A stretch of DNA of 64,000 bases from an uncultured virus (IMG/VR IMGVR_UViG_3300025913_000002) (IMGVR_UViG_3300025913_000002); one strand, 5' to 3'. Positions 17,825 through 52,486 are shown, counted from the stretch's first letter. Numbers and translations: made by a program. Notes: a model not told the origin generated them from the letters alone.

Positions 17825-18178
17825 TTACTCCTTCACGCCTCTGCGCACAAACCCGCCTAGCCGATCAGCGGCGTCACTGAAAGCCTTAAGCCGCTTGTCA
17901 ATCTCGGCCCGAAGTTCCGGCGTCTGTTCCGCACTCTCGTAAAGATGCTCAAACGTTTCTCGTTCACAAACGTACGTCTCACCCATCGCGCCCTTGATGA
18001 CCCAATCTCCAAGCCTGCACTCGTGGTCTCCACGAGGACAGGTAACGCGTATGGAGCCGCTGTTTCCGGGAAGTCCGTACGTCGGCAAATCGTGACCGAT
18101 TAATGCAATGATGGGAGCCGTGTCGCCGGTCCACTGAACCGCTTCAATGACAATTGGCGTTCGGCGGAACTTGGGCAT
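17825..18178 (-). CDS. conserved phage protein (KFRRTPIVIEAVQW...GDWVIKG family)
   Basis: Recognisable motif; TGATG overlap with endolysin. Confidence 0.75.
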   Translation of the reverse strand: MPKFRRTPIVIEAVQWTGDTAPIIALIGHDLPTYGLPGNSGSIRVTCPRGDHECRLGDWVIKGAMGETYVCERETFEHLYESAEQTPELRAEIDKRLKAFSDAADRLGGFVRRGVKE

Positions 18179-18780
18179 CAGACCTTCACCATCCATCCGC
18201 CGCCGTTGCCACGGCTCACATCACCGTCCGCATTCATGCCCGCGATTGTGGCCGACGGGAGTTGCTTGAGGTTCCAATCGGCATAGTCGGCCCCGCTGTG
18301 TCCCGGTGATTGGTCTATCCATGTGAACGAAACTAACCCTGCATCGTGCAGGAACTTGCAGACTGCGCCGGGTCCGTACACACCGACCTCGTACGTCGTC
18401 TTACCGATTTGACCGTGCCGCTGAAGGCTCTCTCGGACTGCCTGAAAATACTGGACTACTTTGGTCGGGTTGATGTCGAGATCGACCGCGTAGTAAATCG
18501 GTGAGTTGAACGGCTGTCCTAGATGTTGGCAAAAAGCGAATGAACCTGCTCCGTCCATTAGTCCCTGCGCCCGCGTGAAGTAGCTTTCCTGGTCGCCTAT
18601 CTCCCACACGGTGCAGATGTAGATACCCGCCTTCGAAAGTGCCCGCACTTCCTCCGGTGTCATGTTCTTCCACGCACTGTGGGAGGCGTACCTGCACACG
18701 AAGGAGATGCCTGCCGCCTTGATCGCTGGAATATGGGGCGTGCAATCTTGAGTTGTATCGAGGCCGCGTGATGTGCTCAT
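18178..18780 (-). CDS. endolysin, DUF1906/Rv2525c-like (GH25-like) glycoside hydrolase
   Basis: GISFVCRY, KNMTPEE, IYYAVD, VGVYG motifs. Confidence 0.85.
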   Translation of the reverse strand: MSTSRGLDTTQDCTPHIPAIKAAGISFVCRYASHSAWKNMTPEEVRALSKAGIYICTVWEIGDQESYFTRAQGLMDGAGSFAFCQHLGQPFNSPIYYAVDLDINPTKVVQYFQAVRESLQRHGQIGKTTYEVGVYGPGAVCKFLHDAGLVSFTWIDQSPGHSGADYADWNLKQLPSATIAGMNADGDVSRGNGGGWMVKV

Positions 18781-18983
18781 CTTATCGCACTCCAATCCTT
18801 GCCAGTCGTATCCACTCTCACCGGCCCCCGATTGTGCAGGATGTTCTCGCGCTTGCGCTCTTCTTCTGCGACGTTGTAGGGGATCGGTCCTATCTTTGGA
18901 AACCTGAACGGTGCGCGCAAGTGCAGAACGATGCGTCTTTCGCCGCGCCATTGATCTTGGCGGGTTGTGGTGTCGATGCTCAT
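18777..18983 (-). CDS. hypothetical protein
   Basis: ATGA overlaps at both ends. Confidence 0.5.
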   Translation of the reverse strand: MSIDTTTRQDQWRGERRIVLHLRAPFRFPKIGPIPYNVAEEERKRENILHNRGPVRVDTTGKDWSAIR

Positions 18984-19414
18984 GGCGATTCGGCTCCAGA
19001 CAAAGAAAAATCCGCCACCCGTTTGAGTAGCGGAACGTCGGGTACGTATTCGGTTTCGGCCTCGTGATAGCCGAACGGAGGTTCCTCGTTCAGCGGCGGA
19101 TCGTGCTCCCACGGCGTGCCGCGCAGGTCGTAAGCCATCGCCTCGTTTCGGCGGCGCGTGTTCGATCCGTAGCATTCGCATTTACCGACGATACGCCAGC
19201 ATTTCCCGCATTCGCGCCAACGCAAGCGATCGCAATTCCAATTGCGGCCCTCGTTCCTCATGAACGAACGAAGTATGTCCTGCCAGCGCGCCCCGCGATA
19301 ACGAGGGAACATGCTGCGCGCAACCTGGTCGTCGTTGAAATCATCCACGGCGCGGTTGTAGGCGGCCTTCGTGCGCTTCTCACGCTGCGGCCGCCGCCAG
19401 TCTCTTGTTCTCAT
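18980..19414 (-). CDS. hypothetical protein with CGKC...CEC
   Basis: AGGAGG RBS, partly inside a hairpin. Confidence 0.6.
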   Translation of the reverse strand: MRTRDWRRPQREKRTKAAYNRAVDDFNDDQVARSMFPRYRGARWQDILRSFMRNEGRNWNCDRLRWRECGKCWRIVGKCECYGSNTRRRNEAMAYDLRGTPWEHDPPLNEEPPFGYHEAETEYVPDVPLLKRVADFSLSGAESP

Positions 19415-19497
19415 TCGTCTCCTCCTGTAAGTGCTAAGACAGCCTTACAGGAAGGTAAATCGCGGGGGCATGTGTGTTCTCCGGGTCTGGGCATGGG

Positions 19498-19529
19498 AAA
19501 AGCCTCCGCTCGGTGGTGAACGGAGGCTT
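19498..19529 (-). terminator. intrinsic terminator after tRNA-like RNA 1
   Basis: AAGCCTCCG/CGGAGGCTT stem followed by a short T run. Confidence 0.6.
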
Positions 19530-19537
19530 GATGGAAA

Positions 19538-19692
19538 TGGTTTTGATCCTGCGGGCCGGGTCGTGTCCGGCTACAGTCGGCGGCTTTGCGGGCCACTTGC
19601 AAACGCCGCTTGGTTTATCTAGAATTGAAAGCGGTCGGACTGTCAGGCTTTGCTTGAACGTGGACAACCCACGTTGCCGCAGGGTCAAATCG
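19538..19692 (-). ncRNA. tRNA-like structured RNA 1 (non-canonical)
   Basis: Long closing stem, D-arm-like AACGTGG/CCACGTT, T-arm-like GCCGG-7nt-CCGGC, ends ACCA; homologous to 19913..20094. Confidence 0.65.
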
Positions 19693-19765
19693 CTAATCCC
19701 AGCTCTACGTTTAAGTTCGCACGGCGGAGCGGGTCACGCCTCGATCACACCGGGGGCGGTTGGCC

Positions 19766-19912
19766 TTAATGCGAGCTTCTCTTTACGGTTTTAATCAGGG
19801 AGTTCAATTCCTTCACTATGCCGCTTACGCAATAGCAGATATACCACCAGAGCAATTGCGTTTGCAGAACTACGAGTAGTGTAAGTACAAGCCATATTAA
19901 CACTTGCCGCAT
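19766..19912 (-). CDS. 48-aa single-TM membrane peptide
   Basis: MRQVLIWLVLTLLVVLQTQLLWWYICYCV...; ATG directly after the CCA of RNA 2. Confidence 0.55.
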   Translation of the reverse strand: MRQVLIWLVLTLLVVLQTQLLWWYICYCVSGIVKELNSLIKTVKRSSH

Positions 19913-20094
19913 TGGTTTTGATCCTGCGGGCCGGTCGCTACTCCGGCTTCCCTGTTGCACATCGGTGGCACGTCGGCCTTTTGCCCTGAACCGTCGCTCA
20001 GAACTCAGCCGCGCGTGTGTCTACTAACCCCGTAAGGTCGGGCGCCTCGTACTGGCAGCGTGTCTGCTTTCCACGCTGCCGCAGACCAAATCGG
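19913..20094 (-). ncRNA. tRNA-like structured RNA 2 (non-canonical)
   Basis: CTGCGG/CCGCAG stem, GCGTG-GAAAGCAGA-CACGC arm, GCCGG-AGTAGCGA-CCGGC arm, ends ACCA; -10 box just upstream. Confidence 0.65.
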
Positions 20095-20118
20095 TAAATT
20101 GAACGAGTGTCTGTGACT

Positions 20119-20127
20119 ATTATACCC
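20119..20127 (-). promoter_or_regulatory. GGGTATAAT -10 element driving the tRNA-like cassette
   Basis: Perfect TATAAT about 25 nt upstream of RNA 2. Confidence 0.55.
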
Positions 20128-20132
20128 TGCCA

Positions 20133-20519
20133 CTAAACTTCTTCTATGCTCAACGTCACCCAGTCGATAGCGTTTATGGCTTTCTTCAATCCTTCTGAAC
20201 GGGGCGTGTCTCCGTAGACATCGTTCAGAATTATCTTGAGATTCCAGTTGTAGCCTTCAGCAACAATGTGTTTGCTGAATACAGTTGAGTGTGCCCGTTT
20301 ACTATCAATCTCAGATACCATGATTCGGCGCGCAAGGTGTTCGACTACCGTATCATCCTCGTGAGTGAACCACACGCTAGGCCAATCTACGCCATGCCCC
20401 GAGCACGAAGAATTGGTCACAAATCCAATCGCGTTCATGGCATCACAAAGAGGTACAATCTCTTCATCCAACTTTTCGGGATAGTCGGGATCATATCTGA
20501 CTGTATGCCAATCAGCCAT
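20133..20519 (-). CDS. TYW3-like-motif phage protein
   Basis: LDEEIVPLCDAMN...TNSSCSGH resembles the TYW3 N-terminal D..I..L...N...TTSSCSGR motif; lower GC. Confidence 0.55.
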   Translation of the reverse strand: MADWHTVRYDPDYPEKLDEEIVPLCDAMNAIGFVTNSSCSGHGVDWPSVWFTHEDDTVVEHLARRIMVSEIDSKRAHSTVFSKHIVAEGYNWNLKIILNDVYGDTPRSEGLKKAINAIDWVTLSIEEV

Positions 20520-20793
20520 TTCCACCGCCCCCACTGCCCGCCGTCTCCACCGGCTCGGCAGGTTTCTCTATCATATCAGGCCCGACCGGAACCGGAACAT
20601 CGCTCTGATGAATAGGACTGGGCGTGATGTACAGACCACTCGCAATCAGCCCAACCAGGATCGCATCGATCGTCACGCGCCATTCTTCGGGCAGTTGGTG
20701 CGTGTTGGCGGAGTAGTAGCCGACCCCGGCACAGATAGCCGTGCCTATCATCTTCGCGACCCGGTAGAACGTGCGCCATTGATCTTGTGTCAC
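20512..20793 (-). CDS. putative holin (2 TM)
   Basis: Two hydrophobic segments, near the endolysin. Confidence 0.55.
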   Translation of the reverse strand: MTQDQWRTFYRVAKMIGTAICAGVGYYSANTHQLPEEWRVTIDAILVGLIASGLYITPSPIHQSDVPVPVGPDMIEKPAEPVETAGSGGGGNG

Positions 20794-21749: not shown

Positions 21750-21938
21750 TCAGTACCTCGGATACCAGAACCCCGGCGCGATGTGCAGGAACACCTGCAA
21801 CAGCCAGATCAAGCACAGGACCGCAAGCACGACCTGCACGACCTGCTTCACCTTCGCGTCGAGCGGTAGTTGCCCCAATATGTAAAAGAACAGCCATATC
21901 ACCAGTGCTGTTATAAGTAAACTGATTATCAAACTCAT
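21750..21938 (-). CDS. small 2-TM membrane protein (Thivi_2564-like)
   Basis: LIISLLITALVIWL...LP...K..VQVVLAVLCLIWLLQVF. Confidence 0.65.
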   Translation of the reverse strand: MSLIISLLITALVIWLFFYILGQLPLDAKVKQVVQVVLAVLCLIWLLQVFLHIAPGFWYPRY

Positions 21939-22339
21939 TTCTTGCCTCCGTCTACCTCGTGTACCAAGATCGGGTTCTCTGGCGTTTGGATCAGCTCAAC
22001 CTGCTGGATCACCGGCAACGCCGCCGCGAGTTCCGCGACGGCCGCAATCTTCTCGTTAAAGCCGTTCGCTTTTTCAAGCGCCTCGACGTTGACCTGCGTG
22101 TTCGCACGCAACTCACGCTTTACATCCTCGATTTCCCGCTTCAATAGCGCCGCGTGCTCTTCCACGAGCTTTTGGGACAGTTCAAGGTTGCTTGCGATCT
22201 CGGACTGCCTTTTCTCCTCCCGCGCTTCCATGCGTCGCTTCTGGAGCCACGAGAAGATGCTGTTAATCAAAATAAGAACGGCCAGCAGAAGCTGGCCGTA
22301 GATTTGCGGGAGATGCAGCGCCCAGTGCGGGAGTGTCAC
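21935..22339 (-). CDS. membrane protein, N-terminal TM plus coiled coil (holin/spanin-like)
   Basis: One TM then heptad region, in the lysis region. Confidence 0.6.
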   Translation of the reverse strand: MTLPHWALHLPQIYGQLLLAVLILINSIFSWLQKRRMEAREEKRQSEIASNLELSQKLVEEHAALLKREIEDVKRELRANTQVNVEALEKANGFNEKIAAVAELAAALPVIQQVELIQTPENPILVHEVDGGKK

Positions 22340-31041: not shown

Positions 31042-34000
31042 TCAGATCGGAATGTAGCGGTCGCGGGTCGTGTTGCCGAGATTGACGTTCAGGCTGCTGC
31101 CCTGGCTATTGATAACCTGCTGCGCCGCCACTTTCGCGCCATCGACGAATACATTCACGATTGGCACGTTCGTCGGCTTGACGGCAAATCCGACGTTCTG
31201 GAGAGTGGGGAACTTACCGTAAGCCGAATAATCGTAAGCGGCGACGTTGAAGTTGCTGGGCGCGTTGTAGTACGCAGGGTTCAGGTCCTGCGGGGTTGCC
31301 GTCGGCTTATTGCTCTTGTGGAAGAGACCGCCGATGAGATCGACCACACCGCCAATGCCTGCGCCAATAAGTGCGCCCGCTCCGCCAAACGTCGCGCCAA
31401 TCGAGGAGCCGGTGGCTACGCCGCCAAGGAGATTGCCGAGATTAACTCCTTGTGACGCGCTGGTTGAGGCAATGCTATAAGCCGCCAAACCTGCGCCGAG
31501 ACCTTTTTGTAGGTCGCTCTGTCCGGTGTTTCCCCGCTTCTTCGCGCCCGGTGCCTGCGTGCCGTCTGCTCCGGCTTCCAGTCCGCCAACCGCACCAGCA
31601 GCCGCCGCTGCCGCTCCCGCACCGAGTGCCTCCGCGACGCCGCCCGTGCTTGTCAGGTTGCCCGTGAAGGTTCCGGGGCCGCTTCCTGACAATGTGCTGT
31701 TGAGCGTGTCTAGCGAGACGCTTACCTTATCCAGCGACAAGATTTCCTTCGTCGTTGCAATCACGAGCGGGTTGGTCAGTGATTTCACGAACGGCTGAAG
31801 CGCCGCGTTCACAATCTCGTCGCCCAGCCCCTTGAAGAGATCGCCGACATTCCCCTGACCATGTAAGAAACCGAGCACGGTTTGTTGTGCTCGGTTCTGG
31901 ATCGGGCCGAGTACGCCCTGAACCTTGGCGCGGTCGAATTGTTCGAGTGCGAGGTTCGCCTGCTTGCGCGCGATGTCGGCGTTCTCGATGTCTTGCTTCG
32001 TCTTCTGCGACTGAGGCGCGCCATTCAGGAACGTAGAGACGAGGCTGAGTTGCGTGATGTCGGTGTACTTCTGTTGCGCAAACTCGGCCTGCTTGACGAG
32101 TTTCTGACGCTCCGGGAGAAGGGAACTCTCGATGTCGTTGATCTTGCGGGCGTACTTATCGTTGACTTCGGCGAACGTGGTCACGATGCCGCGCTGAAGG
32201 GTCTCTTCGGCAAGCCGCCTCTGCTGCGCCGCGTTATCTTCAAGCGCGTCGCGGAAGTGGGCAAGCCCTGCGACCACTTCCGGCAGGAATTGGTTCATCC
32301 CGCTCAGTTTGTCAATCGTGGCCTGAATGTCGGCGGCATCCGCCTTGAGTGCATCCGACTGCGCAGCGGACTGGTCGCCGTAGAGGTCAGTAGACGGCAG
32401 TCCGCGCTGTCGCGACCGAATACTTTGATCCGTCGCCTCTCCGAGATTGCGCGCCACGGCGTCGAGTATCTTGTCCCACGGGATCGACATATCTCCAAAC
32501 GACGGTATCTGCCGCTCAAGCACGCCTTGGCGCTTGCTCGCAAATTCCGCCCCCGTGCCCTCTAAGCCGCCCCGAAGCCTGCGAAGCTTGTCCGTGTCAC
32601 CTGACGCGATTGCGGCCGCTTCTTCGGCGCGCTGTGCCGCCGCTGCCGCCGCGCCCGTTGCGCCTCCGTTCGGTCCACTGAACAGCCCGTGCTTCTGGAG
32701 CGCGAGGTCGTAGTCAGTACGCGCGGATTTCTCCATGCTGTCGCGCAGATTACGGTACTTCTCTTGCGCGTCCTTGAGTTGTTCTTCGGTCTGTTGCTTA
32801 CTCTCAGCGTTCGTATCCGCGAGGTTTCCAGAAAGCCCGAGCCGCAATCGTCGGCGCGTGTCTTCATCGCCCGCCGCTGCCGCCGCTGCATCTGCCGCCG
32901 CCGCTGCCTGTTTTGTTTCCGGGAAGTCGGGGCCATAAAGTTTCTTGACGAACTCGAACTGCGTTTGCAGGCGCTTCGCTGTTTCGTCGAGCGCCTCCTG
33001 GCGCGCTTTCTCGGCTTCGTCGGCTGCTTTCTGCGCCGCTTTGTCGGGAGGCGGAGTGTAGCCCCCCTTGACGTGGAGTGTGCTGGAATTTGGGTTTGCA
33101 GGCTGAAGTCCGGAATTTCGACCGAAAGATGGTGACTGGAGTTGCCCGTTCAATCGATCGTATTCTGCTTGCATGGCCGCAAGATCAAACGTTACGTCGC
33201 GTACTCCAGGACCCGCCAAGGCACCCTGCGTGGGCGCAAACTGCATAAACCGCTGAAGATATCCTCGTTCCTGGGCCGTCTTGTTGCGATACAGATCGTA
33301 CACGCCGCCGTCGTTACCGAAGTGTGCAGCGCCCCCGAACATTTCGGTAGTGGTTACGTTTCCGTGTACGCCCGCTCCTCGCGCAGCCTCAAGCATCTCC
33401 TGCAGAGTGGCGCGCTGCATCCTTGCCTGGCTGTTAACTGCTCTAGGGTCGCCGGGGAACGCACCTCGCCCAGACAATATGCCGCCCATTGTGCCGTTGT
33501 TCGTCGCTATGTTTCGCGACTCGTTGTTGATCCTCTGAATGCCGTCGGCGATGTCCCGCAGGAAGTTGCGCAGCCCGCTAGCGTCGATCGCATTCGAAAT
33601 CGCCGTCATTGCACCGCCCCAGGCTCTTTGAAACTCCTGCGCGGTCGTGGTCATTGTCTGGCGAAGTTTATCGGTCTCGGTAGTCAGTCCATGCGTGCTC
33701 TTTGTGGCATCGTCTAGCTTTTCCTGAATAACACGGAGGAACTCGGGATTGACGGTCCCGAAGAGCCTCCACGCGTTTTGCGTCCCACTGATCGCTTGCG
33801 AAAACTTCTGAGCAGTCGCGACCGGCATATGGCTCGCGACTTCGTTGAAGTTCTTCATCGTCTGGATAAGGTCGAGACCGCCGGAAGGAGTTAGCCCTGC
33901 CTGCAGAGTCGCGCCCTTATTCGAGATCATGCCCGTCGCGGGATTGAAGTTCTTGATGATCTGGCTGATTAACTGGCCGGACTCTGTTCCTCCCATTCGA

Positions 34001-34812
34001 CCCCGGACACCTTCGAAGGTGAGTGCGGAGATCGTCGCCGCAACCTGCTCAAGCGGAACGTGTGCGGCTTCAGCGATCGGGCCAAGATATTTGAGCGCCG
34101 CCGTTATCTCTGAAATCTCAGCCGCTGAACCCTTCCACATAATCGCAAGCAGTTCGCCCGCCCGCCTCATTTTCTCGCTCTGGTCAACGTTCTTGCCAAG
34201 CTGGTCGCCGAACTGGTTGTAGACCTGCAGCATGGCGCGCGTCGTGTCGCGGGCGTCGCTCTCGGTGCCGATCACGAGATTGAGCGAGGTTCGTAGAGCC
34301 GAGAACGCGACCGTGTTATCCTTGATCTGCGTCTTGAGCTGGTAGTAAGCCTCGCCAATGTCCTTGACATCGGCCCCGGTCCGCGCCGCCTCTTCTGCGA
34401 TGTCGGCTCGAATGCTCGGAGTGCTCCCGCTCGGAGACACCCGCTGAACCCGCGCCGCCTGCTTCTCCATCTCGCGCATTGCGTCGATGGTGCCGGTGAT
34501 CGCTTTCGTAACGCCTTCGAACACAAGCCCGACGGCACGGTACTGCAGCATCGTGCCGAGCAAGCCACTCATCGACCGACCCATGCTGTTCACGTTGTTA
34601 GTCGTGGTGTTGGTCGTGTTATTGAAGGTGTTGAAGTTGTTCGTGATCGTGGTGATCGACGATCCGAGTTGACCGGTCGCGCCGTTGAACGCCTGGTAAC
34701 TCGACGTGAGCTGCTGGATAATCTTGTTGTGGGCGTTTAAGGCGGTGTTCGCCTGCTGAAGAATTGCAAGGCCCTGAACATCGATCGTTATAGTCGTTCT
34801 TCGGTCTGCCAT
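31042..34812 (-). CDS. tail tape measure protein
   Basis: ~1256 aa, Ala/Gly-rich helical; TP901-type core (ALKYLGPIA...A.ISAL...GVRG..GGT). Confidence 0.9.
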   Translation of the reverse strand: MADRRTTITIDVQGLAILQQANTALNAHNKIIQQLTSSYQAFNGATGQLGSSITTITNNFNTFNNTTNTTTNNVNSMGRSMSGLLGTMLQYRAVGLVFEGVTKAITGTIDAMREMEKQAARVQRVSPSGSTPSIRADIAEEAARTGADVKDIGEAYYQLKTQIKDNTVAFSALRTSLNLVIGTESDARDTTRAMLQVYNQFGDQLGKNVDQSEKMRRAGELLAIMWKGSAAEISEITAALKYLGPIAEAAHVPLEQVAATISALTFEGVRGRMGGTESGQLISQIIKNFNPATGMISNKGATLQAGLTPSGGLDLIQTMKNFNEVASHMPVATAQKFSQAISGTQNAWRLFGTVNPEFLRVIQEKLDDATKSTHGLTTETDKLRQTMTTTAQEFQRAWGGAMTAISNAIDASGLRNFLRDIADGIQRINNESRNIATNNGTMGGILSGRGAFPGDPRAVNSQARMQRATLQEMLEAARGAGVHGNVTTTEMFGGAAHFGNDGGVYDLYRNKTAQERGYLQRFMQFAPTQGALAGPGVRDVTFDLAAMQAEYDRLNGQLQSPSFGRNSGLQPANPNSSTLHVKGGYTPPPDKAAQKAADEAEKARQEALDETAKRLQTQFEFVKKLYGPDFPETKQAAAAADAAAAAAGDEDTRRRLRLGLSGNLADTNAESKQQTEEQLKDAQEKYRNLRDSMEKSARTDYDLALQKHGLFSGPNGGATGAAAAAAQRAEEAAAIASGDTDKLRRLRGGLEGTGAEFASKRQGVLERQIPSFGDMSIPWDKILDAVARNLGEATDQSIRSRQRGLPSTDLYGDQSAAQSDALKADAADIQATIDKLSGMNQFLPEVVAGLAHFRDALEDNAAQQRRLAEETLQRGIVTTFAEVNDKYARKINDIESSLLPERQKLVKQAEFAQQKYTDITQLSLVSTFLNGAPQSQKTKQDIENADIARKQANLALEQFDRAKVQGVLGPIQNRAQQTVLGFLHGQGNVGDLFKGLGDEIVNAALQPFVKSLTNPLVIATTKEILSLDKVSVSLDTLNSTLSGSGPGTFTGNLTSTGGVAEALGAGAAAAAAGAVGGLEAGADGTQAPGAKKRGNTGQSDLQKGLGAGLAAYSIASTSASQGVNLGNLLGGVATGSSIGATFGGAGALIGAGIGGVVDLIGGLFHKSNKPTATPQDLNPAYYNAPSNFNVAAYDYSAYGKFPTLQNVGFAVKPTNVPIVNVFVDGAKVAAQQVINSQGSSLNVNLGNTTRDRYIPI

Positions 34813-34825
34813 TAATCCACCCAAC

Positions 34826-34855
34826 AAAAAAGCCCGCCGACACCCGGCGGGCTTT
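34826..34855. terminator. intrinsic terminator immediately upstream of the TMP start
   Basis: AAAGCCCGCCG/CGGCGGGCTTT with a T run on the minus strand. Confidence 0.75.
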
Positions 34856-44223: not shown

Positions 44224-45255
44224 CTATCCCACCTCATCCTGTTCTCGAAACAACCCTAAATCGAGTCCCGTCGGCCTGTTCCAATCGTGCGCCGCCACGG
44301 TATCCAGCACATACTGCGCCGTCGCGCGCTCGGTGAGGTGCGTCATGCAGTGGTCGTAACCGCGTTCGTAGATGCCGAACGACCGTTCCGGGTCGGCAAG
44401 TGCGGAGTGCAATTTCTGGCAAACATCCGTCCCGAGGAACTCCTCACCGTCGCTTTCGACATCGTAGGCGACGGACGTCACACCATCTTCTAAGGGCGCG
44501 CGCGTGCGAATCGACAGCGGCCCTTGCAGGAGGAGCGTTCGCACGAGAACCTCGGTCATCCGAAACGAACCGGAACCGTAGCCGTCGAAGGAAACGCTTG
44601 CCTTCGCGGATCGCGTGCGGCTGAAGAACTCGTCTTGCGGCATCCTCGGAACCTGCTCGCCTGCCTGGTCATTCAGGACGCGGATTTCCGATTTTACGTG
44701 ACACCCACGCAGCGCGTCCGTGATGTGCATCCGCCACGGGTGCGATGCGCCCCAGCTTACGAACAAATCCTGCTCGCGGCGTAAGTACTCCTCGCGGTCA
44801 GGGCGATCGTGACAGACCGAGAATGCGTAGAGCGGGTAGTCGATCGGATGGTACTCGCTCGGAAACTCGATGTACTTGCTGTGCTCGCGCAGGAAGTAGG
44901 GGAACGACTTGCCCTGCAAGAACCGCCTCAGTTTCTCCTGCTCACCGCAATCCTTCGTGTCGTGGCTCATGCTTCCCGGCGCAAAAGCGTTCGCGTAGTG
45001 CCGGATGATGTTCGGGAGCCGCTTGTAGTACCCGTACTCAGCACAATCGACGAATGCGATCGGCACGCTATCGTCCGGGAACGTCGGGTAGATGTATTCG
45101 CGGGTGTGGGCGGTCTGATTAAAAATCAGGACAAGATCGTAACCATTGCCGGGATTGAAGTACGTGACTTCGTGGCCGAGTTCTTGCAGGCCCCGGAAGA
45201 GACCGACTTGCAGCGGGCTCCCGCCGAGTGTCGAGAGGTAGAGTGCGATCTTCAA
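44224..45255 (-). CDS. glycosyltransferase (GT-B, CgeB/GT1-like)
   Basis: GLQELGHEV, DLFVSWG...R, F......K..V...GYG..SFRMTE. Confidence 0.7.
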   Translation of the reverse strand: MKIALYLSTLGGSPLQVGLFRGLQELGHEVTYFNPGNGYDLVLIFNQTAHTREYIYPTFPDDSVPIAFVDCAEYGYYKRLPNIIRHYANAFAPGSMSHDTKDCGEQEKLRRFLQGKSFPYFLREHSKYIEFPSEYHPIDYPLYAFSVCHDRPDREEYLRREQDLFVSWGASHPWRMHITDALRGCHVKSEIRVLNDQAGEQVPRMPQDEFFSRTRSAKASVSFDGYGSGSFRMTEVLVRTLLLQGPLSIRTRAPLEDGVTSVAYDVESDGEEFLGTDVCQKLHSALADPERSFGIYERGYDHCMTHLTERATAQYVLDTVAAHDWNRPTGLDLGLFREQDEVG

Positions 45256-46754
45256 GCGTTCACCAACTGCCTCTCGGTTGTCCTCAAGATGTTCGGCGGC
45301 AGCGGCCCCGACTGACCCATGCTGTGCTCGTACGAAAGCCCGACGCCGCCCGCGTTGTACGGAATTCCGAGCGCCGCCCGCACTTCCGCCTCCAGCGCGT
45401 CGCGCAACTCCACGATCCGCTCAGCGCTCAGATGATCGGTGAAGACGTAGGACACGTAATCGCCAGGCACGCCTTTGTAGTACTCCGCCACGCGGTTAAA
45501 ATCGACCTCGTAGGCGTGGAGACGGTCGCCGGACTTCGGCGCGGTGTACGTCCATGTTCCCGGAGCGGTCTCGGTCGCCTCATCGTAATACGGCGTTCCT
45601 GGATAGGTGCTGATCACCGTGCAATCAAAATCGTCGGGCCGCTCTTGCAGAAGCCACTGCTTCGTCGCTCCGATCGTCTCGGCGCTCTCCCCGGCGTGCC
45701 CGATGGACATTAGGGCTTTCACCTTCAGCCCGTGCCGCCTCGCAATCGCCATGCACTCGCTGTTCTGCTCGCGCGTCGCCTTCTTCTGGATGTTCTCCAG
45801 GATGCGCGGACTACCGCTCTCGAAGCCGATCAGTATCCACCGGAACCCGGCGCGGACCATCGCTCGCGCTTGCTCGTCGGTGAAGAGGTTACTCTTGACG
45901 AAGCCGCGAAGCCGAAACTCGACGCCCAATTCCGCCTGCAGTGCCGCAATCGCGTCCATCAGTTCGACCATGCTCTTGCTGACGTTGAGTTCGTCGTCGT
46001 AGAACATGAAGCCGGTAACGCCGTACAGCTCGTAGAGGTGCCGCACTTCCGCGACCACATTCTCGGTCGAGCGGGTGCGGATGCGTCGCAGCATCGGGGA
46101 GTTGCGGCCCCCACAAAAGGCACACATGTACGGGCATCCGAGCTGTCCGATCAGCGACGTTGCGCGGTGGCTCTCGATCGCGTAATGATAGCTCTCCATG
46201 TCCACGAGGTGACGCGCCGGGAGCGGGAGTTCGTTGAGCCGGAGAGCTATCATTACGAATCTGCTCGCGGCATCGTCGCCGTCGATTAACTTCGGCGCAT
46301 CCGGCATGAGTGCATGAAAGATGCTATCTTCGCCGTCACCTGCCACCAGCACATCGAACATTTCTGCCAGAACGTCAAACGCACGAACCGCGCGCCCCGT
46401 GATCTCATGCTTCACCTCTCGCTTCCGTGCTGCATTTACGAGCGTGACGTGCGGACCGCCGAGGATCACCTTCGCATCCGGCCGTGTTTCTCTCAGAACC
46501 GCTGCAATCTTGGCTGTGGCGGGCATCTGCGGGGTCGTCGCGGTCAAACCGAACACCGTCGCGTTCGTGCGGCTCGCGTGGTCCCGAACGGCCTCCTCGT
46601 AGTTCTCGACACCATTTAGGTCCAAATGCTCGACGGTGTATCCGTCTGCCTCCAGAACCGCCCCGACCCGGAGTATGCCGAGCGCAACAAAAACCCGAGC
46701 GTCTAAGAGGAAGACGCTCGGGGGAGTGATGAGACAGATTGTCGGCTTATTCAC
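45252..46754 (-). CDS. cobalamin-binding radical SAM enzyme (class B methyltransferase-like)
   Basis: B12-binding domain (LGILRVGAVL, VILGGPHVT, GDGE); CPYMCAFC; IGFESGS; YPGTPY. Confidence 0.9.
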   Translation of the reverse strand: MNKPTICLITPPSVFLLDARVFVALGILRVGAVLEADGYTVEHLDLNGVENYEEAVRDHASRTNATVFGLTATTPQMPATAKIAAVLRETRPDAKVILGGPHVTLVNAARKREVKHEITGRAVRAFDVLAEMFDVLVAGDGEDSIFHALMPDAPKLIDGDDAASRFVMIALRLNELPLPARHLVDMESYHYAIESHRATSLIGQLGCPYMCAFCGGRNSPMLRRIRTRSTENVVAEVRHLYELYGVTGFMFYDDELNVSKSMVELMDAIAALQAELGVEFRLRGFVKSNLFTDEQARAMVRAGFRWILIGFESGSPRILENIQKKATREQNSECMAIARRHGLKVKALMSIGHAGESAETIGATKQWLLQERPDDFDCTVISTYPGTPYYDEATETAPGTWTYTAPKSGDRLHAYEVDFNRVAEYYKGVPGDYVSYVFTDHLSAERIVELRDALEAEVRAALGIPYNAGGVGLSYEHSMGQSGPLPPNILRTTERQLVNA

Positions 46755-47281
46755 TTGTGGACCCATCGGAGCGTGACGACCGTCGTCCCTTCGGGTGCGG
46801 GGCCGAAAACTTCATCGACCGCCCGCTTCACGCCCTGAAAGTGATCGTGGCCGTAGTCGTGGAAGACGATCACGCCGCAGGGCCTCACTCGCGGCCACCA
46901 CCTCGCGATGTCGGCGACCACATCCTCGTACGTGTGCATCGCATCGAGGAAGATCATATCGTAGTCGTCGGTCAGGCATCCCGCCGCCGTCTCGCTCGAA
47001 TAGAGGCGGTATTCGACGTTCAGGAACCGCGCCGTGGCCGTCCGGAAGTCGTCGAGCGTCTGAACGCTCTCCATCTGTTCCTGCCCGGCGGAATTGGCCG
47101 AAAACGTGTCGCAGCACATCAGCGATTTCGCGGTGATCGCCATGCAGAACGCCGACAGCCCCTTGAACGAGCCGATTTCGAGCACGTCGCGGTTTGCAGC
47201 CAGTTCCGCGAGCTTGTCCATCTCGCTCGGATGGAGGAACCCTTCAATCCCTATTGATTTCGTCGTCTCAAGTAGGTCCAA
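46751..47281 (-). CDS. class I SAM methyltransferase (Methyltransf_24-like)
   Basis: VLEIGSFKGLS, IFLDA.HTYE.V..D, GVIVFHDY. Confidence 0.85.
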   Translation of the reverse strand: MDLLETTKSIGIEGFLHPSEMDKLAELAANRDVLEIGSFKGLSAFCMAITAKSLMCCDTFSANSAGQEQMESVQTLDDFRTATARFLNVEYRLYSSETAAGCLTDDYDMIFLDAMHTYEDVVADIARWWPRVRPCGVIVFHDYGHDHFQGVKRAVDEVFGPAPEGTTVVTLRWVHK

Positions 47282-47282
47282 T

Positions 47283-48011
47283 TTAAGACAGTCCCCATTT
47301 CTTCAGAAACTTCGGCATGAGCTTGTCCTTAGACCCGCCATTAAAATGAAAAACACCGGGTGTCGTCCCGGTGATCCGGTTACGAATACGTTCGCCTCGC
47401 GTATCGAACTCTTTCACGAACGACGCGCTCAGGCACTGCGCCAGCTCGCACGCGGTATCGACGACCATATCGACCGGCTGCGCGATATAGGCGATCTGGC
47501 CCTGTTCCTGGTCGTCGGGGTAGATCCATCCGGTATCGTCTGCGTTTCGCCGGTCAAAACCGAGCGCATCGAGGTTCTGCCACTCTAGGCACGCGAGCAT
47601 CTTCTCGGCCGGGCCACAAAAGAAGCCGTTGTTCAAGAACCGCCACGGCGACCCGGTATCCGGGAAGTGGTCGGCAAGATCAGTGCGCGGCCAGCACGCT
47701 TTTTCTGCGTTGAACACGATCGCATCGCCGTAGAGAGACGCGGCGCGCTCGTCGATCGACTGCGGGTGCTCGCAGAACACGATGTCCCAGGCGTCGCACA
47801 CAATAATCCGATCCGCTTTGTTCTTTCCAGCCCGCAGCCAGTTGCGCAGCAGGTTCGGCTTGGTAATCAAACCGCCCCACGGCTCGTTCATCCCTAAAAT
47901 CACAGGCTTGAACTGGAAGCGCTTCAGGCTTTCGAGGTAGGTCGAGAAACGATAGTACGGCTCCGTTGGCACGCGGCTCGAAACCGACACAACTTGCACC
48001 GATTTAACCAA
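47283..48011 (-). CDS. PLOD/LH-type glycosyltransferase domain protein (paralog 2)
   Basis: CDAWDIVF, VFNAEKACWP, RFLNNG..G, DDQ, FHFNG. Confidence 0.8.
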   Translation of the reverse strand: MVKSVQVVSVSSRVPTEPYYRFSTYLESLKRFQFKPVILGMNEPWGGLITKPNLLRNWLRAGKNKADRIIVCDAWDIVFCEHPQSIDERAASLYGDAIVFNAEKACWPRTDLADHFPDTGSPWRFLNNGFFCGPAEKMLACLEWQNLDALGFDRRNADDTGWIYPDDQEQGQIAYIAQPVDMVVDTACELAQCLSASFVKEFDTRGERIRNRITGTTPGVFHFNGGSKDKLMPKFLKKWGLS

Positions 48012-48711
48012 GTGCGAGCCTTCCGTAGAACGCGGGACCGCAAATCTCCTTCGCGCCGCCGTTGAAGTGGAAGACGCCAGGGGCCGAACCCGCGATTTTG
48101 TTCGTGATTTCGTCTCCCGAGAGGTCAAACTCGCTCAAATCACACGCCGAAAGTGTCTGCGCGAGCCTGCACTGCGTGTCAACGACCATTTCGACCGGCT
48201 GTTTGGCAAAAAGCGCCTGATATTCGCCCTGATCGTTAGGATAGGGACCGCCAGGCGGGTCAAAACCGATGCTTTCGATGTCCATCGCGTTCAAAAGTGC
48301 GAGAATTTGGCTTGCGGGACCACACATGAATCCGGAATTCAAAAACCGCCACGGACTGCCATCGTCCGGGAAGCAGTCGCGCAGGTCTTCGCGCGGCCAA
48401 CAGCCCTTTTCACCGTTAAACACCACTGCGTCCCCGAACCACTCGGCGCACCGGTCGCCGATCCCGTGCGGATGCTTCGCGAAGATGATGTCGAAGGCGT
48501 CACAGACGATCAGTCGGTCACTCGTGTTGTGCCCGTTCCGCAGCCATTCGCGAAGAAGGTAGGGCTTCGTCATCAATCCCTGCCACGTGCCGTTCATTCC
48601 GAGGACCGTCGGCGTCTCAGCGAAGCGCGCGAGGCTTTCGATGAACAGGTCGAAGCGATAGTACGGCTCTGCGGGAACCCGGCTCGCTACGGTAACAACT
48701 TGTGCGTTCAT
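48004..48711 (-). CDS. PLOD/LH-type glycosyltransferase domain protein (paralog 1)
   Basis: CDAFDIIF, VFNGEKGCWP, RFLNSGFMCG, NDQ, VDTQCRLAQTL, FHFNG. Confidence 0.8.
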   Translation of the reverse strand: MNAQVVTVASRVPAEPYYRFDLFIESLARFAETPTVLGMNGTWQGLMTKPYLLREWLRNGHNTSDRLIVCDAFDIIFAKHPHGIGDRCAEWFGDAVVFNGEKGCWPREDLRDCFPDDGSPWRFLNSGFMCGPASQILALLNAMDIESIGFDPPGGPYPNDQGEYQALFAKQPVEMVVDTQCRLAQTLSACDLSEFDLSGDEITNKIAGSAPGVFHFNGGAKEICGPAFYGRLALG

Positions 48712-49469
48712 GCCACCCTCGCCGACACAGTTTCGTGCCCTGAAGTCCATCGACCGAACTTGATCGCCTCAAAAGCCGCCCATTCCAACATCATAGTCAC
48801 GTGCTTGACACTGTGGACGTAGACATGCTCGGCAGGGCAGAAGAACCGCTCTGTGACTTCCTCGCCCGGACTGACCATCGGAAGCATGAGCAGCAACTGC
48901 CCGCCATCCTTCAGCAGCCGTTTGCATTCGGTCAGGAACGGACCGGGATCGTGAATGTGCTCAAAGAGGTCGAGCGCGACGATCAGAGAAAACGAGCCGG
49001 GATTGATCCGCGCCGTAACCTCCGGGAAGTACCCGAACATTAAGTGCGCTTCCGGCCCCGCCGTTTCCTGGATGTACTCGCGGTACGAGCGATCAACGTC
49101 GATCCCGAAGACAGGCGTAAACCCGGCATCGTGAAGCCTGCGAAGGAGGTTCCCAGGAGCGCAGGCGATTTCAAGCGCGCCCCCGCCCGCTCCCTCGATC
49201 TGCCCCATCACGTACTCGTTCTTCGTGACGCCGCACTCGTGGTGACTGTCTACGTTGAAGGACTGCTCGGCGATTGTGGAACGACCATTCTCGTGCGTCC
49301 AGTAGTCACGCTCGTAGATCGCCGCAGGGTCCACTGGAGCCATGCTGACGTACGTCCCACACAGCGTGCAGATTTGATAGTCCTGCACGCTGCACGGGCA
49401 CAGATTGTGTGCGCATGGGATGATCGGTGTACGCGGGTCTTCGGCTATCGGCGCTGCTTTTCTCCTCAT
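48708..49469 (-). CDS. class I SAM methyltransferase with N-terminal Cys cluster
   Basis: LEIACAPG, DLFEHIHDP..FL...LLKDGG.L, PAEH. Confidence 0.85.
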   Translation of the reverse strand: MRRKAAPIAEDPRTPIIPCAHNLCPCSVQDYQICTLCGTYVSMAPVDPAAIYERDYWTHENGRSTIAEQSFNVDSHHECGVTKNEYVMGQIEGAGGGALEIACAPGNLLRRLHDAGFTPVFGIDVDRSYREYIQETAGPEAHLMFGYFPEVTARINPGSFSLIVALDLFEHIHDPGPFLTECKRLLKDGGQLLLMLPMVSPGEEVTERFFCPAEHVYVHSVKHVTMMLEWAAFEAIKFGRWTSGHETVSARVA

Positions 49470-50014
49470 CCTGGCACCTGCGGTTCCGGGACCGGCTTTC
49501 TGCCGATGTACAGGATACTGTAGCAGTCCGGGTTGTCATCTACGAAGTCGTCGCGGATCGCTTCGTAGGTATGCAGGTAGGCGGTCAGTTCTCCGACGTG
49601 GCTCTCGTGTCGGTGATTCCCGTTGTCGCAGTCGTAGGGCGGGTTCGCCTCCAATCCGCGCAGGACGTTGCGCCGAAAACGCAACCGGTCCGGGACCGCA
49701 ATCAGCATGTACCCGCCCGGCTTCAGCACCCGATCCCACTCGCGCAGGACCGGCCCCCAGTCCGCGAAGTCTTCGAGGAGGTGGCTCGCGTGCACGAAGT
49801 CGAGGGTGTGATCCTTGAACGGCAGGTCAGTCGCGTCGCCCTGGTAGTGGATGTTGCCACGCTCCCGGTTCGGGTTATACGACTTGAACTGCTCGTCGGG
49901 GAGGTCGAGCTGGATCGCCCACGGCGCGATTGGAGACCCGTCGCTGCCAAGATCGACGCCGTTCCCTTGAACGTACTCGGTCACAAGATGACGATGCCTG
50001 TCTGTCTCGCTCAT
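49466..50014 (-). CDS. class I SAM methyltransferase (Methyltransf_11-like)
   Basis: GVDLGS, DATDLPFKD.TLDFVHASHLLED, EW.RVLKPGG. Confidence 0.85.
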   Translation of the reverse strand: MSETDRHRHLVTEYVQGNGVDLGSDGSPIAPWAIQLDLPDEQFKSYNPNRERGNIHYQGDATDLPFKDHTLDFVHASHLLEDFADWGPVLREWDRVLKPGGYMLIAVPDRLRFRRNVLRGLEANPPYDCDNGNHRHESHVGELTAYLHTYEAIRDDFVDDNPDCYSILYIGRKPVPEPQVPG

Positions 50015-50202
50015 CGTCCCGTCTCGACTTTCTGCAGACGGGCTTCCGTCAACAGTATTGGGAATAACGTCTCCATCTCAAGTAACTGAGTGTAGCGCTC
50101 CCTCGTGATAGTTACGCCGACCACTCCTTCAACCAGTTTGGAAAGTCGTTCGACTTCACGCTCCAATTCTGACAATCTGTCGTTCGTACTTGGTTTTCTC
50201 AT
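50011..50202 (-). CDS. small coiled-coil protein
   Basis: GGAGG RBS, overlaps at both ends. Confidence 0.5.
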   Translation of the reverse strand: MRKPSTNDRLSELEREVERLSKLVEGVVGVTITRERYTQLLEMETLFPILLTEARLQKVETGR

Positions 50203-50939
50203 CAGTCGCCGCCTCCTATTCGGCCCTTGATCCTCTCCATCAGCCCGAGAAACAGCATGTGAAGGATCACCATGTGAACGTCTTCCGCTTGCTGCATACT
50301 CTCGGTGGGAACGTGGATCGAGATGTCAACCGTCTTCGCCAGCACGCCGCCGTCGAAGCCTGAAAGTCCGATCGTCGTCACACATTCACTCTCACTCGCG
50401 ACCTGTACGGCGTTGAGAACATTCGCGCTGTTCCCGCTCCCCGACACGGCCACCAGGACCGCCCCGCATTCGTTCCACGTTGCCACTTGCGGGGCAAAGA
50501 CGTTCGACCATGCGCTGTCGTTGGCCCATGCGCTCACAAGCGGCGTAGCGTCGTTCAGACAGATCGCCTTCAGCGGCTTGCCGGTCTCTAGGCCGATATT
50601 CTTTTGCAGATCATTAACGATGTGGGAACATGATGACCCGCTACCGCCGTTGCCGCAGAACATGACGACTTTGTTGTTTTGCCAGGCTCCGTAGAGTGCG
50701 TCTACAGCCTTAATCACCTCGAATATGTCTATCCACTGTACAAGCGTCGCAACCTGCTCGCTGTACTTCACAAAGCGCCGAACAATCGGACTATCTGTGC
50801 CGTACTGTCCGTATCCCTCGTGCTGAGACATCTTGGTGCACTCTTGCAATTTCTGTTTGAGGCGTACTCGTTTGTCGCCCCTCAATTCCTCCGAAATCTC
50901 TGGTAAAGCCATCGTTCCGCCGCCTCCTACACGGCTCAC
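50202..50939 (-). CDS. gmhA: SIS-domain phosphoheptose isomerase (GmhA-like)
   Basis: CGNGGS...SH...DL, AWAND...F..Q, SGSGNS.NV, GFDGG, QQAEDVH; true start may be further downstream. Confidence 0.85.
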   Translation of the reverse strand: MSRVGGGGTMALPEISEELRGDKRVRLKQKLQECTKMSQHEGYGQYGTDSPIVRRFVKYSEQVATLVQWIDIFEVIKAVDALYGAWQNNKVVMFCGNGGSGSSCSHIVNDLQKNIGLETGKPLKAICLNDATPLVSAWANDSAWSNVFAPQVATWNECGAVLVAVSGSGNSANVLNAVQVASESECVTTIGLSGFDGGVLAKTVDISIHVPTESMQQAEDVHMVILHMLFLGLMERIKGRIGGGD

Positions 50940-52486
50940 GCGCTGATGTTACTCCCCTGGCTCGCGTCAACAAGCAGCGAACTCGCTTCGCCTGCAGTAT
51001 CCGCACTCGTCGGGGTCATCCCCTTCGCCTGCATCGCGATGATCTTCGCTTCCGTCTCCTGCTTCTGCGTCAACGACTCCGCCTGAACGGTCTTGATCTC
51101 GTTCGGCGGAATTTTCTCCGCCCGCGCTACCCGCTCGACGCCGCGAGCGTGCGGCAGGAGGTGGTTGTTGACCTGGCTTATCGTCCGGTCGGTCGTTGCC
51201 TGCAAATCCCTCGGCGTCTCTGCGAAGTACGTGGGCCAATCGCACGAGACTTCCATCTCCGGGTCCCACGTCCGAATTTGTGGAAATCCGCCCATGTTCT
51301 GCAGGGCGGTCAGGACCTGGTGAAAGAAGAGGCACAGGCCAGACGCGCCCCAGAGTTCGCGCTTGCGATCGGCGGTCGCGATCGTCCGGGAAAACGTCAT
51401 CGCGAAAGCCAGGCTCGTCATGTTCCCTTTGTTCGTGATCGCGGCAGGGTCCACCCGCGAACGGCCAACGCCCCGGTACAGCAAATCCTCCATCCGGTCG
51501 GCGTATGATCCGCTGTATGCGCGCGCCGCCCCGGAGGGTTCCAGCAGTTTCGCGTCGGCCCGGACATCCGGGTTATCGTTACGAATGCTCAGTGGTTCAC
51601 CGGGCAGCAGCGGCCCCTCGTTATCGACATCTGCATTCGTGACCACCAGGTTCGGCTCGCTGTGCATCTGGTTGCCGCGATCTTCGCCGTGCATCGTGAG
51701 GGCGATACGATCGATCAGGCGAAACACGCGCCAGCAGTCGCCTTCTCCGAGCGGATTACCGGCCACGGCTTTGTTGCGAATGACCGTGATCGGAATGACG
51801 CCGAGCGGGTTCTCCTCCTCGCTCTCGATCTGCCAGCGTCCTGGGTCGTCGGTGTCGCCAAGGTGCGTCCTGTAGCCGGGCAGGGAACCGATCCCCGCAA
51901 TATCCGACGCGCCTGCAGGCAGCGGCACGTACTTGACGAACTTCTCGTCTGTCCACTCCTCGCGGTAGTAGTACCAGTTGCCGTCGGTAAGGCTCCGGTA
52001 CGGGTACTGGATGCGCGCCATAAGTAGGTTCAGGCGGTCGTGCGGGTCGATCCAGACGCGACACTCGGTCGGGATCTTCAAGAAACTGATCTTGACCGGG
52101 CAAGCCTTGTCATTCGGATCGACCATGAACTTCGCCGCGAGCGCGCCCTGGTTGCCTGCGTCCTCCGCGAGCGGGATGTACTGGCTCGGCAATCCGTTGC
52201 GCTTGATGATCGTCTGCAGGAAGTCGTCGAGGTTCGGGTCGTCCGGGACCGAGAAGGTCGGGACGCCGTTCCTGAACGTGAATTCCGCGAGTTCCGAGAC
52301 CATCATGCCCACGTAGGGTAGGGGCGTCGGCTGCGGCCCCTTTTCTCTCGGCCACTGGCTCGTGCCGAACGCGTGGGTCGGGTACGGGCGCATGTTATAG
52401 TAGTCAAACGACTGCCAGGCGGCGAGTGCGGTTTCCAACTGAAACGGGGCAGGCGTCGTCGTGTTTATGAGATCGTTACCGGTCAC
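50936..52486 (-). CDS. portal protein (SPP1 gp6-like)
   Basis: Follows terL; ~516 aa; ENPLGVIPI..I.N, LIDRI. Confidence 0.85.
   Translation of the reverse strand: MTGNDLINTTTPAPFQLETALAAWQSFDYYNMRPYPTHAFGTSQWPREKGPQPTPLPYVGMMVSELAEFTFRNGVPTFSVPDDPNLDDFLQTIIKRNGLPSQYIPLAEDAGNQGALAAKFMVDPNDKACPVKISFLKIPTECRVWIDPHDRLNLLMARIQYPYRSLTDGNWYYYREEWTDEKFVKYVPLPAGASDIAGIGSLPGYRTHLGDTDDPGRWQIESEEENPLGVIPITVIRNKAVAGNPLGEGDCWRVFRLIDRIALTMHGEDRGNQMHSEPNLVVTNADVDNEGPLLPGEPLSIRNDNPDVRADAKLLEPSGAARAYSGSYADRMEDLLYRGVGRSRVDPAAITNKGNMTSLAFAMTFSRTIATADRKRELWGASGLCLFFHQVLTALQNMGGFPQIRTWDPEMEVSCDWPTYFAETPRDLQATTDRTISQVNNHLLPHARGVERVARAEKIPPNEIKTVQAESLTQKQETEAKIIAMQAKGMTPTSADTAGEASSLLVDASQGSNISA

Follow-up and report, generated by a model that had tools for sequence, protein, structure and literature searches.

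The 64,000-nt stretch of DNA from the uncultured virus IMGVR_UViG_3300025913_000002 (hereafter the window, meaning the whole stretch analysed) carries on its minus strand, between positions 20127 and 19498, two homologous structured elements, RNA1 and RNA2, with an open reading frame (ORF) for a 48-aa peptide between them. An earlier note on this DNA had taken the pair for a transfer RNA (tRNA)-scaffolded family with swappable cargo, possibly gating a membrane toxin, which raises the question of whether the elements are relatives of tRNA, parts of a toxin system, DNA repeats or RNAs of another kind. The comparison of eight copies presented here shows a homologous structured frame with exchangeable middles, as the note had proposed, but not a molecule that is tRNA-like in the family sense. 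The RNA structure is under selection, and we tentatively favour a small stable RNA that would be matured at both ends and act in trans via its variable core.

Two homologous structured RNAs in the window

The minus-strand order found by direct reading is the one described in the earlier note: a −10-type promoter box GGGTATAAT without a −35 box (20119..20127), a 25-nt leader, RNA2 (19913..20093, 181 nt), the ATG of the 48-aa ORF, a 73-nt spacer, RNA1 (19538..19692, 155 nt), 9 nt and an intrinsic terminator (19497..19528) with an 11-bp GC-rich stem, a 6-nt loop and TTTT. RNA2, which runs CGATTTGG...ACCA, had been positioned correctly except for one extra C at its start, so that it begins at 20093 and not at 20094. 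The terminator, also listed in the note, is a GC-rich hairpin with a T-run; a terminator scan did not call this RNA1 hairpin, which was put down to a loop of more than 8 nt, and it is plain in the RNA fold.

Each RNA consists of a terminal helix, a 5′ hairpin, a central domain (type alpha in RNA1; type beta, about 107 nt, in RNA2), a 3′ hairpin and an ACCA tail. The common start CGATTTG..CTGCGGCA and the identical 22-mer at the 3′ end, both pointed out before, were confirmed, and the 22-mer has exactly two matches in the 64 kb and none in 100 shuffles with 3 mismatches allowed. In the predicted folds the ends are paired in a long closing stem, with minimum free energy (MFE) z-scores of −3.5 for RNA1 and −3.0 for RNA2. 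One pair of the 5′ hairpin is A-U in RNA1 and G-C in RNA2, which is indeed the compensatory change that the note had reported, and the 3′ hairpin has 5 bp (GCCGG/CCGGC) in both molecules.

Conserved ends and an exchangeable centre

The eight copies studied are found in six contigs. Besides RNA1 and RNA2 they include the single copy of the complete 72.5-kb sister phage G002 (locus L004, 2652-2833) and those of four metagenome contigs, namely L015 (86-268), L016 (a divergent copy at about 2656-2839), L017 (2670-2854) and L018 (copy A at 440-622 and copy B at 1231-1378). The relatives were gathered via DNA and protein anchors, L015-L018 being fetched with the 144-aa protein encoded downstream of RNA1. 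The unit is 148-185 nt long across the family and is present in one or two copies per phage.

In all eight copies the 3′ end reads GATCAAAACCA, of which the final four bases (ACCA) are unpaired, and the terminal helix comprises 9-13 bp, L016 having 9 bp. Common to seven of them are the CGATTTG start, the 5′ hairpin on the stem GCGUG/CACGC and a 3′ hairpin of 4-5 bp (GCCGG/CCGGC), and in 7/8 copies the latter abuts the terminal helix without a linker. Homology among the copies begins at CGATTTG (7/8) and ends exactly at ACCA, whatever sequences flank the unit. Between the two hairpins there is a multi-hairpin centre, of which at least five unrelated or strongly diverged versions were found on the same frame: that of RNA1, the L004 type (L004, L015, L017 and L018 copy A), and those of RNA2, L018 copy B and L016. 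This supports the earlier observation that unrelated sequence occupies the middle between common ends. The centres have been swapped wholesale even though the 144-aa proteins encoded next to them are mostly 91-97% identical.

Several details show that halves have been recombined between copies. In the L004 copy the centre resembles that of RNA1 and the 3′ hairpin that of RNA2; RNA2 and L018 copy B have their first 28 nt in common and are divergent afterwards. The indels in the terminal helix pair up with each other, CC with GG giving 13 bp (L015 and L017) and C with G giving 12 bp (L018 copy B), while mixed combinations leave a bulge (L004, L018 copy A and RNA2), a further sign of recombined halves.

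The DNA runs X2-X4 from other rhizosphere metagenomes contain contigs departing from the window at 19558-19563 and at 20067, exactly the inner edge of the conserved ends, and going on with other centres, which adjoin the conserved 22-mer. The fetched loci lack at least one of these centres, so the environmental diversity of the RNA family exceeds the eight copies studied.

Selection on the structure and strand of the RNA

RNA1 is alignable throughout with the L004-type copies, from which it differs by seven compensatory pairs changed on both sides, four of them consecutive in a central stem (ACAGUC/GACUGU versus GUGUUC/GAACAC). These seven, which remain paired, are among the 59 pairs that RNAalifold predicts in the MAFFT alignment A5. 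A covariance model, R1, built on the alignment of RNA1 with the L004-type copies gives 123 bits for RNA1, 47.2 bits (E-value 1e-11) for RNA2 and 27 bits for L018 copy B, and it finds no third copy in the window. The model-fitted alignment of seven sequences, A7, which is biased towards R1 and made up of close kin, has 98.2% of its 338 cells paired and contains 8 pairs with a both-sided change, compared to 1.9 ± 1.1 in shuffles (0/500 reach 8) and 0-2 in slid controls. 

The G.U and A.C cells stand at 34 to 1, an excess indicating that the folded molecule is the minus-strand transcript, and the positions of the TATAAT boxes and U-runs relative to the unit are consistent with this sense. Indels of 1 and 26 nt between the copies exclude a shared reading frame.

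The same evidence bears on the possibility that the unit is a DNA-level repeat with no RNA function, either similar to a miniature inverted-repeat transposable element (MITE) with terminal inverted repeats or serving as a recombination linker that shuffles modules. Its ends do form imperfect inverted repeats of about 13-15 bp, copies A and B of L018 lie at different intergenic places, copy halves have been recombined, and the variants in the DNA runs are joined at the conserved 22-mer. However, internal helices far from the ends stay paired through both-sided changes, and the 34 to 1 ratio points to an RNA folded from one strand. There is no sign of spread either, as G002 has one copy, and no target-site duplications were seen by reading in the flanks. 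We consider such a purely DNA-level role very improbable, and a MITE or dispersed repeat proper was rejected on the copy number of one or two per phage, on the lack of real copies outside the clade among the matches examined from the 3′-end pattern scans and on the lack of flanking direct repeats by reading.

Comparison with tRNA and other known RNA classes

ARAGORN found no tRNA or transfer-messenger RNA (tmRNA) genes in the window and, when run in intron mode at the default threshold, none in those parts of the window, L004 and L016 that hold the RNAs; its calls at a relaxed threshold do not coincide with RNA1 or RNA2. Rfam 15 gave no match at the gathering score in the window and only spurious rows at E-values up to 10 for the locus and the related loci, the tRNA and tmRNA models being silent even at 10. 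The term ‘tRNA-like’ used in the earlier note therefore found no match in either ARAGORN or the cmscan-type Rfam search, and a strong match to a characterised Rfam family, the outcome which that note had named as speaking against novelty, was looked for and was not seen at E-values up to 10.

Other classes were considered as well. A tmRNA was rejected because neither ARAGORN nor Rfam detects a tRNA-like domain with a tag frame; the C4 family of Rfam has no match at E-values up to 10, and complementarity within the window is at chance level; for Y RNA or YrlA there is no Rfam match, and no Ro60 (rsr) domain occurs among the 47 window ORFs scanned with Pfam.

With regard to structure, both RNAs have the closing stem previously described, but its 7-bp ‘acceptor’ is part of a continuous helix of 12-13 bp, the ACCA following the outer end of that helix. 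In RNA1 the inner 7 bp are followed by AUCAAAACCA, and the 7-bp register is not kept in the relatives. Likewise, the proposed T-arm exists in both RNAs as a 5-bp hairpin, but its loops are not T-loops: when compared with the T-loop and D-loop consensus, the 3′ hairpin loops ACACGAC, AGUAGCGA and UAACCAAU include no T-loop, and the D-loop signature is also lacking. A loop-loop complementarity of 5 bp is limited to RNA1 (1/6 copies) and is not conserved.

A genuine tRNA interrupted at the anticodon by a long insertion or intron, or a molecule of the tmRNA kind, could account for the four-way junction, the linkers of 2 nt and 0 nt beside the terminal helix and the ACCA end. Nevertheless, with silent detectors, loops devoid of T- and D-signatures and a terminal helix of 12-13 bp instead of 7, this explanation can practically be set aside. 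The likeness to tRNA is a loose one, consisting of the four-way junction, the hairpin stacked on the terminal helix and the ACCA tail, and does not imply membership of the family. A helix followed by unpaired RCCA, the arrangement looked for in an RNase P substrate, is predicted in 8/8 copies.

Transcription context and possible mode of action

The copies have the features of free-standing small RNA genes, being non-coding and conserved in structure, with a TATAAT box in 5/8 copies, placed from 14 to about 150 nt upstream, and a GC-rich hairpin with a U-run within 9-25 nt downstream in 7/8; only RNA2 has the ORF in that position. The box GGGTATAAT also precedes L018 copy B, GGGGTATAAT is found ahead of L016 and L017, and GCGATATAAT ahead of L004. 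The GGGTATAAT box is not clearly enriched in the window (6 versus 3.7 expected), and a sigma-70 scan did not call the promoter there because it has no −35 box. RNA1 lacks a separate promoter and must be transcribed together with RNA2. The terminators belong to three unrelated sequences (RNA1, L015 and L017; L004, L016 and L018 copy B; L018 copy A), and the leader varies in length while the conserved unit is constant.

An atypical tRNA-like gene of 77 nt (L018:301-377, plus strand) is located 63 nt upstream of copy A in the same orientation. ARAGORN calls it tRNA-Leu(UAA), with a perfect GTTCGAATC T-arm and no long variable arm, and Rfam matches it weakly (18 bits, tRNA-Sec model, E-value 0.99). 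Upstream of this gene in L018 (111-194), and between the GGGGTATAAT box and the RNA in L017 (2539-2622), there is a structured segment of 84 nt, with 96% identity between L017 and L018, which may be a further non-coding element of the RNA transcription unit. A CGATTTAC-like word recurs just ahead of the start of most RNA copies, in L004 as the tandem CCGATTTA-CCGATTTG, and is also present in the 5′ untranslated region (UTR) of the 144-aa gene (19454-19462); its enrichment in the window is marginal (15 versus 9 expected), and CGATTTR motifs show no clear enrichment there.

The copies thus stand behind a −10-only promoter and a variable leader, behind an ORF or behind a tRNA-like gene, an arrangement that calls for processing, and the homology limits at CGATTTG and ACCA fit a unit excised from longer transcripts. 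The explanation that we prefer, with a confidence somewhat short of even, is a small stable RNA whose two ends are matured, one by RNase P and the other by trimming to CCA, and which acts in trans via its variable core. A longer primary transcript would be trimmed to the conserved unit, RNase P accepting the helix with RCCA and cutting the 5′ end at CGA|UUUG, and host exonucleases trimming the 3′ end back to ACCA, in keeping with the fact that host 3′ exonucleases stop at CCA. The invariant ends would serve maturation and stability, and the fast-changing centre would be the specificity part that binds a host or competitor molecule; its rapid replacement suggests a trans-acting specificity domain. 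Bacterial RNase P is described as recognising 3′ RCCA and as having 4.5S RNA, tmRNA and phage regulatory RNAs among its non-tRNA substrates (PMC4919922).

Several observations weigh against this explanation. The processing sites are placed solely by the homology limits, which could equally be recombination joints. All copies come from close relatives, so that no more than a few events lie behind the covariation, and in L016, missed by the covariance model, nothing but the terminal helix, the tail and portions of the hairpins is preserved. The MFE does not consistently favour the sense strand (the antisense of RNA1 has a z-score of −4.7), and no antisense target was found in the window, where the longest complementarity to RNA1 or RNA2 is 13 nt, i.e. 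at chance level. A rhizosphere RNA library (run X5) contains one 151-nt contig equal to 19915-20065 in RNA2 with 0 differences; with a depth of 2 it shows presence only, and it could be carried-over DNA. The absence of X5 cover over the ORFs flanking RNA2 carries no inference. Finally, the 144-aa gene has an RNA copy immediately before it in 6/6 loci, which a role in cis would fit equally well.

Such a role is the main alternative, less probable in our judgement though to be taken seriously: a cis-acting leader would control read-through or processing into the 144-aa gene and the endolysin gene, the RNA acting either on RNA polymerase, in the manner of HK022 put, or by binding the 144-aa protein in a positive loop of the lambda N/nut kind that times lysis. 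The order promoter, RNA, terminator, 5′-UTR hairpin, 144-aa gene and endolysin is indeed seen in 6/6 loci, and in L018 the second copy with its terminator precedes a gene for a 133-aa protein, so that two copies in one phage recall the pairs of homologous sites putL/putR and nutL/nutR. The 144-aa protein also has a suitable N-terminus, with 8 Arg/Lys in its first 16 residues and about 60 nearly invariant residues, but it matches no antiterminator family in Pfam or PHROGs, and the wholesale replacement of the centre beside 144-aa proteins that are 91-97% identical would be odd for an RNA with a fixed partner. Moreover, no alternative pairing of the 3′ strand of the RNA with any of the three terminator types was seen by reading, RNA2 is followed by an ORF and not by a terminator, and copy A of L018 stands behind a tRNA-like gene.

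An improbable proposal, as we see it, is that the RNA works as a counter-defence decoy, its helix, ACCA and 5-bp hairpin imitating the acceptor/T-arm end of a tRNA and soaking up host immune enzymes directed at the ends of tRNAs. Such a decoy might also be aimed at acceptor-modifying toxins. The centre would then diversify in an arms race or offer a second bait, of which the 7-nt loop CCGCAAA in RNA1 would be an example. In PMC12851939, tail-cleaving nucleases of the Cas12a3 type are reported to accept a simple hairpin with 3′ CCA, viral tRNAs to be unable to readily evade tail cleavage, and other means of resistance to be still unidentified.

The 48-aa peptide

The ORF between the two RNAs (19766..19912, minus strand, ATG at 19912) codes for a peptide with one hydrophobic helix, the hydrophobic segment covering residues 2-20, and a charged tail. 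As the earlier note had observed, the ATG follows the CCA directly, and an AGGA lies in the RNA2 closing stem; it is part of the 3′ strand of that stem, 11 nt ahead of the ATG. This layout, together with the nature of the peptide, would suit an RNA-gated membrane toxin resembling type I toxin-antitoxin systems, in which the RNA2 stem hides the ribosome-binding site (RBS) and RNA1 and RNA2 are the antitoxin or gate. Yet the peptide has no homologue and no match in Pfam or PHROGs, the 220-nt segment encoding it is absent from every related locus, and an ORF follows the RNA in only 1/8 copies (0/6 copies of the relatives). The idea that the peptide is a component of the system is not upheld, and we regard the gated toxin as highly unlikely. 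Assignment to the type I toxin-antitoxin class, which calls for a conserved toxin ORF, was rejected on the same count of 1/8. Since the RNA family exists without the peptide, the ‘sandwich’ is a peculiarity of this phage, and the ORF is probably a passenger and not part of the RNA system; the AGGA does overlap the stem, but this layout is not conserved.

Neighbouring genes and genome context

The 144-aa gene (18980..19414, minus strand) lies directly downstream of an RNA copy in 6/6 loci that include upstream sequence. Its product has a Cys cluster (C-x7-C-x2-C-x6-C-x-C) in addition to the Arg/Lys-rich N-terminus, which may be comparable to the Arg-rich motif of lambda N; from its sequence, the protein could bind RNA. 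It has two relatives among 5.8 billion proteins and no match in Pfam, PHROGs, the PDB or the protein atlas, and its AlphaFold model is unusable with a pLDDT of 41. With this protein and the endolysin as queries, only the sister phage was found in IMG/VR. A 5′-UTR hairpin (19424..19451, minus strand, read directly), the 3′ strand of which runs into the RBS AGGAGGAG of the gene, is kept in L004 and L015-L018, with the loop inverted in L015 (GCTGTCTTAGC versus GCTAAGACAGC).

Upstream of RNA2 there is the gene for the 133-aa protein (20133..20534, minus strand), which in L018 (776-1190) is located between the two RNA copies and which is absent from G002. Its TNSSCSGHG region resembles the tRNA-wybutosine methyltransferase TYW3, the N-terminal motif being sub-threshold (PF02676, 20.6 bits against a cut-off of 27), and the protein could be, judging from this resemblance, an RNA-related partner. 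Among its relatives 19/45 scanned match the same PF02676 stretch, two of which pass the cut-off, and PDB entry 2drv is matched with an E-value of 0.89. The family comprises 197 representatives at E-values up to 0.001, IMG/VR yields only one weak match on an unrelated contig, and the AlphaFold model (pLDDT 43) is, like that of the 144-aa protein, too poor for fold searches.

The window belongs to an uncultivated siphovirus-like phage, whose terminase shares less than 30% identity with its counterpart in any cultured phage. The genes for the large terminase (52499-54037), portal (50936-52486) and tape measure protein (31042-34827) are on the minus strand, as are the tail genes, which are followed by small accessory and membrane proteins, the RNA locus, the 144-aa gene, the endolysin gene and further unassigned genes. 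The endolysin (18178..18951, minus strand) contains an Rv2525c-like glycoside hydrolase domain (PHROG 13480, E-value 1.6e-22; PF08924, E-value 2e-26). The RNA family is situated where accessory or holin-like genes give way to the endolysin module. The 62-aa membrane protein encoded at 21750-21938 (minus strand), which has two hydrophobic helices, is a better holin candidate than the 48-aa ORF, and a 134-aa protein (21935-22339, minus strand) has an N-terminal helix and a coiled coil; lying 2 kb upstream of the endolysin gene, the two are likely to be holin- and spanin-like parts of a lysis module split by the RNA locus. The interval from portal to head genes (45252-50939, minus strand) holds a modification-type gene block, unusual within a structural operon, coding for a B12-binding radical SAM protein (504 aa), two or three methyltransferases, a PLOD-type glycosyltransferase and a SIS-domain protein.

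Distribution of the family

The BLASTN search of the locus against 50,697 phage records gave no match. One record, G001, is the window's own sequence, with 100% identity across the locus. A first scan with the 3′-end pattern returned one locus, a chance match in AT-rich DNA; the scan of IMG/VR returned seven, of which one, the sister phage, is real; another pattern scan of IMG/VR gave at least 119 stretches, with no closing stem beyond chance in any of the 80 fetched; and in the genomes of 185,579 species nine loci were found, none of them real. The RNA family is therefore narrow and non-spreading, with no copies outside the clade among the matches listed or scanned, and it is carried by a narrow clade of uncultivated siphovirus-like phages of soil and rhizosphere. 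Nothing describing this RNA was found in those parts of the literature that were searchable. The identifier of the sister contig does not occur in the searchable supplements of PMC10690425, and the RNA may be among the 8,495 IMG/VR candidates of that work. Given its absence from Rfam 15 and from the phage records searched, the family appears to be previously undescribed.

Relation to known systems

Few phage non-coding RNAs are understood, and the family described here, known from one narrow uncultivated phage clade, is of interest in several respects. An invariant frame with a centre swapped wholesale among near-identical phages is suggestive of diversifying selection acting at the RNA level. 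Should its ends be generated by RNase P and by trimming directed at CCA, the unit would represent a naturally occurring RNA scaffold that draws on the machinery of tRNA maturation. It could also be considered for a part in RNA-based counter-defence against immune systems that target tRNAs. Should it act in cis, it would amount to a switch of a new kind ahead of the lysis module, paired with an Arg-rich protein bearing a Cys cluster.

The put RNAs of HK022 and the nut sites of lambda are small and conserved. They resemble the present elements in being homologous structured sites, up to two per phage, between promoter and terminator, and they differ in that the centre here is hypervariable, one copy stands behind a tRNA-like gene and no protein of the N, Q or Nun families was detected. 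With tRNA, tmRNA and YrlA the family has in common the terminal helix ending in ACCA, the four-way junction and the 5-bp hairpin abutting the helix; the detectors for these classes are silent, however, T- and D-loops are missing and there is no Ro60-type gene among the ORFs scanned. YrlA itself is said to mimic tRNA (PMC4201824).

The closest known molecules are phage RNAs matured like tRNAs, namely C4 of P1/P7 and RNAC/RNAD of T4. The RNAs C and D of T4, also called species 1 and 2 stable RNAs, lie in the tRNA gene region of that phage and are processed like tRNAs. They are similar to the present family as small phage RNAs made late, and copy A of L018 likewise stands behind a tRNA-like gene. 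In contrast, no relation in sequence or Rfam is seen, and T4 is a myovirus with true tRNAs, whereas G002 has no tRNA. Their function is given as still unassigned in PMC9697503.

C4 RNA of P1/P7 and CI RNA of P4 are small phage RNAs cut by RNase P from a longer transcript. The paired ends with a CCA-type tail could make the present RNA an RNase P substrate too, and the likeness extends to the position upstream of a small ORF and further genes. The C4 precursor is listed among RNase P substrates in PMC4919922. The present RNA differs from C4 in being twice as long, in its multi-branched variable centre, in the lack of an Rfam match and in having neither complementary sites near the downstream RBS nor immunity genes nearby.

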